From assembly GCA_964016885.1 (NCBI GenBank), contig OZ024742.1, positions 56,358,001 through 56,422,000 on the forward strand: a stretch of DNA of 64,000 nucleotides, read 5' to 3'. The translations under genes were made by a program, and so were the position numbers. Of the stretch, positions 22,083-34,808 are shown in pieces (the first letter of the stretch is position 1; every line of letters starts with the position of its first letter). The notes under the pieces are model-generated. The model had not been told where the DNA came from. It worked only from the letters and a program-made list of their open reading frames with translations, and did no database searches. The stretch is from Eledone cirrhosa (Eukaryota).

Positions 22083-22209
22083 CCCAGACGGACGTCTCGT
22101 TTCATTATAGGATTCCTACAATTTGGGTGAAATTATGCCAATGTATGTAGGAGCTTGTATACCATCAATAGATATATATTCAAGTGGGCTCCTATAATTC
22201 ATCAGTGGG
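22083..22209 (-). ncRNA. Type I hammerhead ribozyme with long branched stem II (copy A)
   Basis: Minus strand CCCA-CUGAUGA-AUUAUAGGA...UCCUAUAAU-GAAAC-GAGACGUCC-GUC-UGGG; lies in repeat ~21955-22315, homologous to ~34545-34930. Confidence 0.88.
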
Positions 22210-23209
22210 TGCCCCAATAATATTAATATTGATAATCTAACCAACATCAGTATTTAGCGATAATCACCATCCTCTGTGCCTGAGGTATCTGTCAGGTAGC
22301 CAGTCCAGCAGTTTTAAAGAAGTGCTCAAACTGATTCAAAAGATGAGGAAGTAAATTACCGCCAAAAAAACAATACATGCGCATGACAATGAATTCTGAA
22401 AGGAATTCAGGCCACGTGCTAAGAACTCAATTGGAAATTGAAAAAAGATCTGTGTGTACAACATTTGATGACACACACAGATATTTTCTCGGGCAAAATA
22501 ACAGAATATGCATATATATATATATAGATTTACATTTATATTCATATATATATATATGGTGGCTGCCAACTCGTTTTCGAGTACGGCCACTACTTTATAT
22601 CCATGTAGGAGAACACCTACCGATGGGCTGAACGAGTGTGACCTTTTAGTCCAGCCAGCGACTTGAAAACTCTGGTACAAACACTACACTTGTGTCAATT
22701 ATTGACACATAGTACTGGGCCCATGTGACGACAAGTGCAGAGAGATCTCCCGGTATAAAGCAATGCCTATGCCGTGAAGCTTTTATAGTGAGAAAATGCA
22801 CTGCACAAAGCCAGTCCCACTTTCTTAACCAAGATGATATTTACCAAAAAGAAGAACAAGTCAACATCATTGGATACCATCAGAGGTTGCAGGTGTTATA
22901 TCAGAGTTTTCCTTCTCCTAGAATTCTGCCTTGACAAAGGCTAAGGGGTCATCTCTCCCGGTGTTTTTGGATGGCCATTGACTCTTAAGAGCTCTTTTGG
23001 CCTTTGACAGGTTTTGTTTTTAGTCCTGCAGGATGTTCAAAGTCAGCCTCTACACCAAGAAACCTTGGTGGGGTTGCCAGTTTAGTCGCCAACGACGCGA
23101 CTATGAGACAGGTTGTACTGGGATACATGTTACCAGTAGCACCAACTGGTATGTATATATATATATATATACATACATACATAGATATCTATATATATAT
23201 ATATTAATA

Positions 23210-23288
23210 GGAAAATATTTAAGACCTCGACGGCAGAGCTCAAGCTGTCGAAATGGCTTGAACTATGCCGTCGGGGTGTTGAAAATAT
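23210..23288. repeat. GACCCCGACGG fold-back family (half-hammerhead palindrome); other copies ~23850-24015, 24715-24855, 26185-26380, 27250-27462, 51358-51500, 57648-57842
   Basis: Shared GACCCCGACGGCAGAGCTCAAGCCGTTTCGAC...GTCGAAACGGCTTGAGCTCTGCCGTCGGGGTC, usually with a ~100-nt tail (CCCACTCTACTACCCTAAGTATTGAGTACTCTGG...); always at (TA)n. Confidence 0.9.
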
Positions 23289-23604
23289 ATGCATATATAT
23301 ATATATACATTTACATTTATATTCATATGTATATATATATATATATATATATATATATATATATATATATATATATATATATACAAGTATGTATACGTAC
23401 ATACATATATATATACAGGTGTACAGTAATATGTGTATATATATATATATATATACATACATGCACACATATATATATATATGTACGTATGGATTCACCG
23501 AACATTTATTATAATGCTCGGTGTGTTTGTAAACAAACATCCAGAATTAAGCCGTACAGTGTCTAGCAACCATCATTGCACTTTTGTTCAACACTGGCAA
23601 AGGA

Positions 23605-23647
23605 ACGCTGTACTAGTTTCAAGCTTATTAGCTATCGTCAGCAACGT
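23605..23647 (-). ncRNA. Minimal type I hammerhead ribozyme
   Basis: ACGUUG-CUGACGA-UAGCUAAUAAGCUU-GAAA-CUAG-UA-CAGCGU: 6-bp stem I, palindromic CUAG loop, GUA triplet; U.U at the stem II base. Confidence 0.8.
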
Positions 23648-23884
23648 ATACCTTCCTGCCAGATGATTGAACGTCTGAAAGTATATACTTTCCTTATGCA
23701 TATTAACGGCTGAGCAGCCTAATTTGCATATCGAGTGAGTTTAAGTAAAAGCCGTACTACGAGTGAGAAATGAAATTCCGTTGCATTTTTTCCGTGTATA
23801 TATATATATACATACATACATATCTATTTATCTCTCTCTCTCTATATATTTAGAAAAATGTTCAAGACCCCGACGACAGGACTC

Positions 23885-31441: not shown

Positions 31442-31907
31442 CAGATAGATGGATAGATAGATAAATACATAGATAGATAGATAGATAGATAGTAGATAGA
31501 TAGATAGATAGATAGATAGATAGATAGATAGATAGATAGATAGATGGATAGATAGACAGCTGTACATATTGCAACTTTTAAAACAAATGGATGTTTGTGT
31601 AAATTTCTGGATGAGTGTGGTGACATAAGGGTCATTATTTTTATAATTAGTTACAATTTCCGACGGTAATTTGTTCAATTAGCACGTAACCCGAAAAACG
31701 AGATTCTATTATGCTGGTAATTAGAAAACTATATTCAAGAGGTATTTCTGCATATACCCGCATTTCAGTTCAACGCTTGTATTGTTGAGTACTTCAAAAT
31801 CTTCTATTAGATTCTACTTATCAAGCAGAGAGAGAATAAATCTATTCGATCCGTTAACGTGAGGTGTTTCGATTTCGGTTTTAATTACATATAAACTTAT
31901 TGAACAG

Positions 31908-32233
31908 ATTTCAATATTATTCTCCTTGAAAATTCGAATCAGAATTTCTCTGAGTACGCAAAAGCTGACACACAATATCCCGTTCAAGCAGTGTCAAAAC
32001 ATCATCAACTTGGAGATTTATCCACAAATACAAGCACTTCAGATTTGCAATATCTTAGCAGTTTAAATTCAAGTACCGCAGATAACCATTACAGTATTGG
32101 ATCTGATTTATATCTGAAAAATAGTCTCCAAAAGCGCGCGCAGAAATTGTGTTTAAGAGGATATAGAAGAGGATACACTTCTTCAGAATCAAACAAGGCA
32201 ATTATAGCTAACTGTGACAATATATCTAAATGA
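31908..32233 (+). CDS. Candidate coding exon, unknown product
   Basis: About 108 open codons after AACAG (DFNIILLENSNQNFSEYAKADTQYPVQAVSKHHQ...DNISK*); weak polypyrimidine tract, no domain. Confidence 0.2.
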
Positions 32234-32845
32234 GGAAATAGCTTAAATTAAATATGAATTAATAATCACGTAGGAAAGAAATCCGTCTAAGTAAAGTATG
32301 TCAGTAAGACAGGGATAGGAATACGGCAATCTCAGAATCAAAATGTCTATTCCAACTGCTAAATTAAAACTCCAAATCAGAGAAGTATTTATTAGCCGGT
32401 GTCTAGCAGACACTGATTCCCTTCCACAGTTCAGTGAATTTGCATTTATAATATTTCACCACTTCCATAGTTTCGTTACCTCGGGAGCTGTAACATAGGT
32501 GGTACGAACATACGACAATAGAGTTTCATGGTATTTACCCATGGCGTTCACGATATATATATATATATATATATATATATATATATATATATATATATAT
32601 ATATATATAAGTTAGTTTACCATACCGAGAACAAATGTTTCACCTTAAGCGGATCATAGCACGGTCTGTATATATATATATATATATATATATATATATA
32701 TATATATATATATATATGTATATATATATATATATATATATATATATATATATATATATATATATATATATATATATATATATATATATATATGTGTGTG
32801 TTAATTCAAAATATTAACAAAATAGATATTCTTGTGATCAATTAT

Positions 32846-32910
32846 ATTTTATTATACATATTTCAGAGGTACTGAATTAAGTTCAACAGTACGTCCTCAT
32901 CAGATAAAAT
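32846..32910 (-). ncRNA. Type I hammerhead ribozyme (family with 52929 and 56710)
   Basis: AUUUUAU-CUGAUGA-GG AC GUACUG...CAGUAC CU CU-GAAA-UAUGUA-UA-AUAAAAU; 7-bp stem I. Confidence 0.85.
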
Positions 32911-34682
32911 AAAATGATACATGACATACCCCGACATATTAGATGGTTAAGATTTAGTCATGGTAGTGATTAACTTATGACAAAACTCAATATTTATACC
33001 CTAATATTGAGAATGTGAGAAAACGTAATACAAACAATAGAGAGAGTGTGAGTAATATATTTTAAGAAATACATGGCATCAATATACCAGCTATAGAATT
33101 TTTAATTTTTAAAAACTACTAGAGAAAGAGGAGGGAAAGGAAAGCATATAAGAAGAAACAGCTGATGTGATAACTTATTTAGTATTTAGCTTGAGAAGAT
33201 AGATGAAAGATGATTAAAGAGAGAGAGAGACAAAGGGGAGTAATTTATGTTCAAGTTTCTACACACACATATTCTTATATAGTATAGTTGGCGGTTAATT
33301 TTCAAAATATTTAATTTATGTTATTTCAGGGTAAAGAATCAAATTTTAGGTATTTGTATTAATATTATAATATAATTATGTTAAATTTCTAAAATTCAAA
33401 TTTTATGAAAACAAATTTAAAGGATTTACGAAACCCGAGAAAGAAAGAAAATATATATATATAATGTTTTATATCCCCACGAAGGTAATCTTTACCAAAA
33501 TTACTTATAATATTGACAACAGTTTCTATAATATAATTTATAAGATATTTATAGCTATAACTATTAAAGAATGTATTGTTAAATAGTTTGAGTGCCTAAA
33601 GTATCGACCGGCCTTATAATTAAACTTAAAGAAGTCAAAATTTTCAACTATATATATGTATTGATCATAATAAACCAAGCTTATAGTTTATTATTTATTC
33701 ATATATTGTATTAAGTAAATCATTATATAAGTTCGACCTTCCAGGGAAAACCAAACACTTATAATAATAAATAATGTCATTTGTGTGTTTAAATTATTTA
33801 TAAATGTACGATTATGTTATTACACTAGATAAAGATATTTGTACACACTATATATATATATAATTATATGTATTAATGAAACGGTATACATTTAATAAAG
33901 AATAATAATTATAATCATTGTTAATAATGCTATAATTGTAGTTTTACCTCCAGTTCAGTGGAGAGATAGACCAATATTTGTCAGCTATTATGGTTTGTTA
34001 AATATACATAAAAAGACAAAGTCCCCCAAAACCATCTCAAAATGAGTAAAATATATACATATATATATAAAAAATATGCAAACGCATGAATGATCCACAG
34101 TTCAAATTATAATCAGTAAATTTACAATCTAAACTATATATTTAAAACAGAGACAGAAAAATAAAGATCTGAATCAAAGTTAAAAATATCCAAAAAATCA
34201 TAGGGTATGCATATCTATCAAGTAAACAAGTTATCGAACAAGTGTCATTCATTCAAACATTAATTCCATTATAAATGATTAGAAGATAAAGCATTATTAG
34301 AGTTTTATAAACCGTTAGGACTTATATGTACAGCAGTTGATAATAGACGTCGAAAACCAGGCTTCATTGCTTACTGTTTTTTCCTGACTTTTTGCGACGC
34401 TTTATGAATATATATATATATATATTTATATATACATATAAATATATACATATATATTTATATGTATATATATATATATACATATATATTTATATATTTA
34501 ATACAATAACAGAGATAGTTTAAAGCTAAACTCTGACTGGTAACCATCTCACTCAACAAACATTAGGTTATATTAAAATATAAACCCAATTTAAGTGTTT
34601 GGGGTGCTAACAATATGTATAATGTGGAAAGACCAGTTGTATTATTTTATGAGATATAATTAAAGTTAAAGTACTTCTCTCT

Positions 34683-34808
34683 TTCCAAACAATTGTTTCA
34701 TTATAAATTTTCTACAAGTTTGGGAGAATGTTTCCAGTTTATGTAGAAGCCTAATATATATTCATGTAAGAATATATTTAGGTGGGCACTTATAAATCAT
34801 CAGTGGAA
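34683..34808 (-). ncRNA. Type I hammerhead ribozyme with long branched stem II (copy B)
   Basis: UUCCA-CUGAUGA-UUUAUAAGU...AUUUAUAAU-GAAAC-AAUU-GUU-UGGAA; covaries with 22083-22209. Confidence 0.85.

Follow-up and report, generated by a model that had tools for sequence, protein, structure and literature searches.

Metazoan non-LTR (long terminal repeat) retrozymes consist of non-coding units in tandem, each with one type I hammerhead, and occur in thousands of copies (PMC7229834; bioRxiv 10.64898/2026.07.22.740005), and they have been proposed to be non-autonomous derivatives of Penelope-like elements (bioRxiv 10.64898/2026.07.22.740005). The minimal hammerheads of Penelope pseudo-LTRs (pLTRs) are also of type I, with a helix I of 4-5 bp, a helix II of 7-8 bp and a short palindromic helix III that suits cleavage as a dimer (PMC4209133; PMC6765202). 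In the Poseidon element PAc of the green anole, the hammerhead lies upstream of an internal start of reverse transcription (RT), targets are AT-rich and partial tandems occur; the cut falls 26 nt into the open reading frame (ORF), RT starts internally 111-118 nt into the ORF, and the RNA required for insertion lies within the first 172 nt of the ORF, mostly downstream of the hammerhead cut (PMC11167929). Here we analyzed a 64,000-nt stretch of the genome of Eledone cirrhosa (assembly GCA_964016885.1, contig OZ024742.1, positions 56,358,001 to 56,422,000, forward strand; hereafter, the window), in which two minus-strand sequences, at 22083-22209 and 34683-34808, read as type I hammerheads with a branched domain of about 95 nt inside stem II. 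This motif is a genuine structural variant, under selection, of the type I hammerhead of Penelope elements and retrozymes; it is carried by non-coding repeats with (TA)n targets, and its extra domain probably serves as a scaffold.

The repeats share the retrozyme and Penelope features listed above and differ from each of the described systems. Retrozyme RNAs of 170-400 nt (PMC7229834) and consensus sequences of 51-972 bp (bioRxiv 10.64898/2026.07.22.740005) compare to units of 550-1030 nt here, and most of the copies described here, known from DNA alone, are dispersed, 5'-truncated and TA-targeted, with a 95-nt branched stem II. In place of the loop II of pLTR hammerheads, the present motif has a three-way junction that bears two hairpins and is predicted to form a pseudoknot with the 5' tail, the pair G10.1-C11.1 is found in only 3 of 20 lineages, and no ORF is attached. 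PAc is autonomous, whereas the repeats here are non-coding, and a stem II insert is not described in the portion of the PAc report covered (PMC11167929). Pseudoknot-stabilized hammerheads, including human C10orf118, have a 4-5-bp pseudoknot proposed to align stems I and II, together with a short stem II for which no branched loop is described in the part of the source covered (PMC3088659); the pseudoknot in our case is a prediction. The discontinuous Clec2 hammerhead is also a natural hammerhead split by a long insert, but that insert spans several hundred nt in an mRNA 3' untranslated region (UTR) (PMC6765202), whereas the present one has a fixed length and fold and resides in a mobile repeat. 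No description of the branched stem II domain was found in the portions of the hammerhead, retrozyme and Penelope literature covered; long-stem-II variants may be reported elsewhere.

Taken by themselves, the two copies in the window are weak evidence for the motif. Copy 1 reads CCCA (22209-22206), CUGAUGA, 95 nt, GAAAC-GAGACGUC-CGUC and UGGG, and copy 2 reads UUCCA (34808-34804), CUGAUGA, 97 nt, GAAAC-AAUU-GUU and UGGAA; the two are 70% identical over ~270 nt, from the GGGC just 5' of stem I to the (TA)n run, and the 10.1-11.1 pair is A-U in copy 1 and U-U in copy 2. The pattern CUGANGA-N80-110-GAAAC has three matches in the window, compared to 0.48 expected, and 1 of 100 shuffles reached this number. 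The folds are only modestly better than those of shuffled sequences (z of -1.8 for copy 1 and -2.7 for copy 2), and the active fold is the unconstrained minimum free energy (MFE) structure in neither copy. An alternative hairpin that hides the core is present in the MFE structure of copy 1; it was rejected as a general switch because the MFE structure of copy 2 lacks it. On re-reading, we recovered the coordinates, stem I, core, stem II base, both inner hairpins and palindromic stem III loops of the original prediction, as well as its GUC cleavage site in copy 1, whereas the triplet of copy 2 is GUU, not GUC. The stem II domain, which had been put at ~100-110 nt, is indeed conserved and branched but measures 95 and 97 nt between CUGAUGA and GAAA (the values become 107 and 109 nt when counted from CUGAUGA to GAAAC). 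At the stem II base, the AGU/AUU G-U pair is private to copy 2, its family reading AGU/ACU.

Comparison across the genome (3.0 Gb, 1,796 contigs) lifts the motif far beyond chance. Each window copy belongs to its own young family, F1 and F2, respectively, of one non-coding superfamily; both this host element and a candidate GGGC/GCCC pseudoknot had been overlooked in the original prediction. A first look gave 3,499 candidates for F1 and 2,183 for F2, the top 40 of each being 96-100% identical. Exact pattern searches of the genome yielded 3,632 intact 5' halves, compared to 1 in the control, and at least 6,937 group I 3' motifs, compared to 0, group I being one subgroup of the superfamily. The 3' end of the repeats is fixed 181-192 nt past the predicted cut, 5' truncation is variable, the target is (TA)n, and the copies include head-to-tail partial tandems and some inverted 5' pieces, an anatomy known from Penelope-like elements (PMC8557442) and from retrozymes, taken as their non-autonomous derivatives (bioRxiv 10.64898/2026.07.22.740005). 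Tandem units that each carry a type I hammerhead and code for no protein are, in turn, characteristic of retrozymes, and the monomers contain no match to a Penelope protein. A retrozyme-like, Penelope-type non-coding element appears to be the best reading of these sequences.

Units are 696-1030 nt long in group I and about 590-690 nt in group II. The tandems comprise dimers and one hexamer array (L205), and 11 of 92 sampled insertions are longer than one unit. Tandem units share 15 rare variants (null mean 1.2, maximum 6 in 500); however, these fail to separate a circular from a linear multimeric template because 7 of the 15 come from one pair and 87 rare variants across 23 tandem-unit pairs are unshared. 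The F2 monomer (~1007 nt) has an internal duplication of ~260 nt in its 5' part (L060:900-1500), which partly accounts for its greater length. By eye, donor-like GU(A)AG signals occur ~35-45 nt after the monomer start (L004, L060, L141, L171, L417), followed further on in the same monomers by acceptor-like pyrimidine-AG signals, possibly a retained intron of the Penelope type.

Two patterns that excluded F1 and F2 gave 44 matches (control 5) and 110 matches (control 5) and defined group II, which consists of older families; a pattern without the GCCC requirement gave 66 matches (control 0) and defined group III. Among the 30 loci examined from the first excluding pattern, four were family members and most were not, and a reverse-transcriptase antisense family among the results of the 110-match pattern proved to be no family member. 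In a search for other pseudoknot sequences, most results were single mutants, and group III and lineage I8 also emerged. The 268 distinct domains gave 20 retained clusters with 3-61 copies each, a total of 247 copies; singletons, pairs and decayed copies that did not cluster were excluded. In all 20 lineage consensuses, which fall into three groups, the length enclosed by stem II is 94-98 nt, and most of them fold, unconstrained, with a stem of 8 bp, GCC(C) left unpaired, and hairpins A and B; under an earlier grouping, z was -3 or lower in 11 of the 17 foldable consensuses. Hairpin A, with its apex of the AUC-N4-GAU type, can be aligned across the three groups, and hairpin B differs between them. 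The linker GCCCAC, predicted to be invariant, is so across lineages only in its GCC(C) part. The catalytic core, CUGANGA plus GAAA with A15.1-U16.1, is present in 20 of 20 consensuses and in both window copies, and every lineage has an NUH triplet (GUC, GUU, GUA or AUC). Three helices surround the core, and stem I carries the open end. Helix III, short and paired, has a strand that is fully self-complementary in 11 of the 20 lineages and partially in the remaining ones, the sequences being unrelated. Beyond this genome, a single tight pattern produced nine metagenome matches, none with the fold of the motif, and no viral matches.

The covariation that the original prediction expected from a larger alignment was found. 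Applied to 16 real copies, RNAalifold by itself recovered stems I, II and III as well as hairpin A, and 17 of the 28 pairs showed double changes; under a manual structure, 92.3% of 624 cells pair, compared to 34-44% in slid registers, and both sides changed in 18 of 39 pairs. The shuffle control for these copies ignores kinship, and therefore we used a tree-simulated null, in which each 3' column was simulated along the lineage tree, the number of changes and the commonest base being kept equal to those observed (400 simulations, 20 lineage consensuses). Standard pairs occupy 157 of 159 cells in stem II (null mean 110.5), 217 of 240 in hairpin A (167.2) and 80 of 80 in stem I (67.5), and 0 of 400 simulations reach any of these values; the same 0/400 was obtained for stem II and hairpin A within group I alone. 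Stems I and II and hairpin A thus covary beyond the tree-aware null. It should be noted that the registers were set by hand from folds, a bias in favor of the structure. In an internal control, pairing was preserved by 15 of 54 singleton mutations in copies, and 35 of 50 non-modal lineage states were standard pairs. Selection on the domain, as originally proposed, is supported by the constant length in 20 of 20 consensuses and by the covariation of stem II and hairpin A. If the insert were a passenger, such that any self-paired sequence closing stem II or compacting a circular RNA would suffice and the pseudoknot were coincidental, the variation of hairpin B between groups and the high self-pairing of retrozyme RNAs (PMC7229834) would be accommodated. 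Conversely, lineages about 30% or more apart retain the same length, the same order of parts and an unpaired GCC(C), while the upstream (5') part of the monomer is poorly conserved, and we consider such a passenger very improbable.

The junction GCC(C), unpaired in most consensus MFE folds, is complementary to a GGGC that, in groups I and II, precedes stem I by 0-3 nt. Both strands recur in a group I sample picked by the 3' motif alone. In group III, found without requiring the pseudoknot, two sub-lineages have GGCU/AGCC and the third has GGCG/CGCC or CpG-decayed forms; the flanking pair is U-A in 7 of 11 copies of the two sub-lineages; in the third it is G-C or G-U for 6 of 8 copies, and the combinations U-C and G-A are absent. 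This register shift is one evolutionary event. The stem I-II pseudoknot is a good prediction, short of a result. Pseudoknots of this kind are predicted for some 40% of non-repetitive hammerheads and, in those tested, fast cleavage depended on them (PMC3088659).

The 5' ends of genomic copies provide an indirect sign of cleavage. The first sample consisted of the first 100 listed 3' motifs of contig C1 (99 distinct sites), from which 92 insertions remained once inner tandem units and one edge-cut locus had been dropped. There, 15 of the 82 insertions at risk end at -19 to 0, i.e., 3' of the bond, compared to 2 of 67 at +1 to +20 upstream; this interval was picked post hoc, with a scan p of 5e-5. 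In a replicate of 63 new F1-type insertions, with the interval fixed beforehand, the numbers are 12 of 55 and 0 of 43, and 12 of 22 local ends fall in the interval, compared to 2.4 expected (p 7e-7). Pooled, 27 of 137 insertions at risk end there, compared to 2 of 110 just upstream (p 5e-6). Thus, about one pass in five stops just 3' of the predicted cut and about four in five cross the site, indicating that uncut or re-ligated RNA is the main template; uncut RNA is also the main template in the anole Penelope element (PMC11167929). Run-off at a cleaved 5' end would be the simplest reading of the pile-up, and, because broken copies end beside the predicted cut, the RNA is likely to have been cut in vivo during the movement of the element. 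PAc differs in this respect, no read ending at its cut (PMC11167929).

These observations suggest the following scheme. A tandem or read-through transcript would fold the hammerhead, the junction would offer GCCC to the upstream GGGC, and the scaffold would align stems I and II. Paired palindromes could extend helix III, so that some junctions are cut, probably as dimers. A Penelope-type RT-endonuclease would then nick (TA)n, and reverse transcription would start internally at the module of UGAGUGAG and a terminal hairpin, about 180-190 nt past the cut; this conserved 3' module is the likely start region. Copying would run off at the cleaved 5' end in about one pass of five and would otherwise cross an uncut or re-ligated junction, giving rise to partial tandems. 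Overall, we consider it fairly probable that we are dealing with type I hammerheads whose branched stem II of ~95 nt covaries, that these lie in non-coding, TA-targeted tandems, and that the domain likely scaffolds the contact of stems I and II, where self-cutting is likely and copying would follow the Penelope type.

Several findings weigh against this interpretation. The active fold of copy 1 lies 6 kcal/mol above its MFE (pseudoknot energy excluded), and only 7 of 20 lineages have a standard pair at 10.1-11.1, the mismatches being U-U in five, C-A in five and A-A in three, of which U-U is tolerated in hammerheads (PMC3088659). Hairpin B in group I pairs in 84 of 84 cells, compared to a null of 81.6 that reaches this value in 58 of 400 simulations (12/400 for Watson-Crick pairs only), and has a single compensatory pair there. 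For the pseudoknot, 80 of 83 cells pair and the null reaches this in 76 of 400 simulations (0/400 for Watson-Crick pairs only); it hardly covaries, with one flank swap, and rests mostly on invariance, and group II and much of group I were found by patterns that demand it. Among the 5' ends of the replicate, 9 of 12 were called at ATATAT able to merge with target TA repeats, which could place the real ends 9-27 nt away from the cut; insertions starting at 0 or +1 amount to only 3 of 155; and a fairer comparison, of a wider interval to the equally TA-rich hairpin A, gives 17 of 60 versus 3 of 42 (p 0.01). In the anole element in vitro, cleavage was dispensable for insertion and no RNA reads ended at the cut (PMC11167929). 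Finally, an autonomous partner is absent from the loci examined.

Some of these points are shared by another explanation, in which the RNA folds but rarely cuts and the ends reflect stalling of RT at the compact fold, with joining at the TA-like hairpin 3' of it. The majority of ends are located 5-27 nt short of the cut, in ATAT-like sequence, 13 of the 20 lineages have a mismatch at 10.1-11.1, Penelope hammerheads are poor cleavers in vitro (PMC4209133), and the site is crossed in about four of five passes. However, the catalytic core and the NUH triplet are intact in all 20 lineages, the ends fall to 2 of 110 right after the cut with no spread through the 95-nt domain, three insertions (L374, L478, L350) start at 0 or +1 in non-TA-like sequence, and hairpin A is richer in TA runs but poorer in ends. 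Stalling without appreciable cutting is, in our assessment, improbable. That about one-fifth of the passes end just 3' of the predicted cut makes the role of Penelope hammerheads testable.

Penelope-type GIY-YIG loci are many in the genome, and none of those examined has the end of the repeat: no partner sharing it was found in the 50 loci fetched (of 150 scored, among 10,596 candidates) or within 2.5 kb downstream of 122 GIY-YIG ends, a scan whose strict filters also missed known short motifs. Likewise, tblastn or hidden Markov model searches on upstream segments and an ORF scan yielded no partner, and Penelope ORFs near copies (L204, L236, L239, L249, L350) turned out to be separate neighboring insertions. 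Autonomous Neptune-like elements (L181, L061-L088, L085, L196) have hammerhead-like motifs with core variants in their 3' UTRs, featuring UUGAAAA or UUGAUAA, a short stem II, GAAA, a CCGG palindrome and a UA triplet. Another abundant TA-targeted family, with many fold-back insertions, occurs at ~59340-59360 (minus) and at 48 sites in the fetched DNA; its 3' end and tandem junction are 84% alike those of F2 over 38 nt, which hints at a shared enzyme.

The search for a partner also bears on the function of the domain, for which RT binding had originally been suggested. RT binding is a tentative proposal. The RNA needed by the anole element, the one Penelope element studied in vitro, lies mostly downstream of the cut (PMC11167929), and a separate conserved module is found at the fixed 3' end of the repeats. 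The same two facts, together with the activity of anole RNA 5'-truncated to +20 (PMC11167929) and the absence of a protein partner from the GIY-YIG loci examined, the upstream segments and the ORF scan, argue against a main role in docking a Penelope or host protein that switches cleavage or recruits the RNA, with ribozyme and element unchanged. Such docking would be compatible with a scaffold role, and could explain why the nearly fixed 94-98 nt and the apex sequence of hairpin A, kept in three groups, go beyond the need of a 4-bp pseudoknot; furthermore, cleavage by the anole hammerhead required addition of the element's protein (PMC11167929). As the main role, we regard it as rather unlikely. 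A broader proposal, also unlikely and slightly more so, is that of a widespread hammerhead class overlooked by descriptors, in which domain and pseudoknot constitute a protein-gated switch, binding of the Penelope enzyme decides on cutting, and the 5' ends record this step in vivo. If true, genomic 5' ends would reveal a role of Penelope hammerheads unseen in vitro. For the scaffold role, which we prefer, the branched junction with its likely pseudoknot offers a natural object for testing.

Table 1. Features of the two hammerhead repeats (positions in the window)
Feature	Position	Strand	Description
Insertion 1	21906..22507	-	5'-truncated F1 copy, about 600 of 705 nt, non-coding, (TA)n flanks
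GGGC	22211..22214	-	predicted pseudoknot 5' strand
Stem I 5' strand and core	22199..22209	-	CCCA + CUGAUGA
Stem II 5' strand	22190..22198	-	A10.1 plus 8 bp
GCCC	22186..22189	-	junction, unpaired; predicted pseudoknot 3' strand
Hairpin A	22154..22184	-	13 bp, AUC-N4-GAU apex; homologous in all three groups
Hairpin B	22114..22152	-	7-bp base, inner UGG/CCA
Stem II 3' strand to stem I 3' strand	22083..22112	-	stem II 3' strand, GAAA, self-complementary helix III, GUC, stem I 3' strand UGGG
Predicted cut, copy 1	between 22087 and 22086	-	GUC
Small hairpin	22060..22080	-	GAGAUAU/AUGUCUC just 3' of cut; start of many truncated copies
Conserved 3' module, copy 1	21906..21976	-	UGAGUGAG + terminal hairpin; fixed 3' end 181 nt past cut
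Insertion 2	34496..35030	-	5'-truncated F2 copy, about 535 of about 1007 nt, non-coding, (TA)n end
GGGC, stem I 5' strand and core, copy 2	34797..34812	-	GGGC (34812-34809), UUCCA, CUGAUGA
Stem II domain, copy 2	34700..34796	-	97 nt
GCCC, copy 2	34787-34784	-	
Hairpin A, copy 2	34782-34750	-	
Hairpin B, copy 2	34748-34710	-	
GAAA to stem I 3' strand, copy 2	34683..34699	-	GAAA, palindromic helix III ACAAUUGU, GUU, stem I 3' strand UGGAA
Predicted cut, copy 2	between 34688 and 34687	-	GUU
Conserved 3' module, copy 2	34496..34567	-	fixed end 192 nt past cut

Hammerheads are usually modeled and searched with short stem II loops. The expectation that standard descriptors would miss the motif is supported for Rfam, which has no hammerhead match at E<=10 in either copy, and by a published limit of 17 nt for the core spacer (PMC8557442). 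A fixed-length, covarying three-way junction in 20 lineages implies that surveys undercount ribozymes in animal repeats. Short Penelope-type hammerheads also occur in the window, on the minus strand, with CUGAUGA at ~27125, ~32903 and ~52984, a stem II enclosing 27-32 nt and a palindromic helix III. Across the whole window, Rfam gave no gathering-level match, these short hammerheads included, so that ordinary Penelope-type motifs are missed as well; the best 150 of 260 Rfam matches contain only microsatellite-driven microRNA matches.

Microsatellites dominate the repeat scan of the window. Reverse-transcriptase ORFs (RVT_1), to which the hammerhead repeats are unrelated, lie at 3391-5097 (+), 38484-40961 (+) and 36046-36690 (-); the first two also have zf-RVT and are LINE-1-like. 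Elsewhere in the genome, a 459-nt tandem unit (L182:4990-5090 and 5450-5550, +) has a hammerhead-like motif in which stem II encloses ~50 nt and the sequence is unrelated to the superfamily. A further hammerhead-like family (L185:4810-4900, L197:1090-1180 and L198:4500-4590, all +) has U-U at 10.1-11.1 and a stem II of ~8 bp; its loop AUUC faces an upstream GAAU, possibly a short-insert version of the pseudoknot design.

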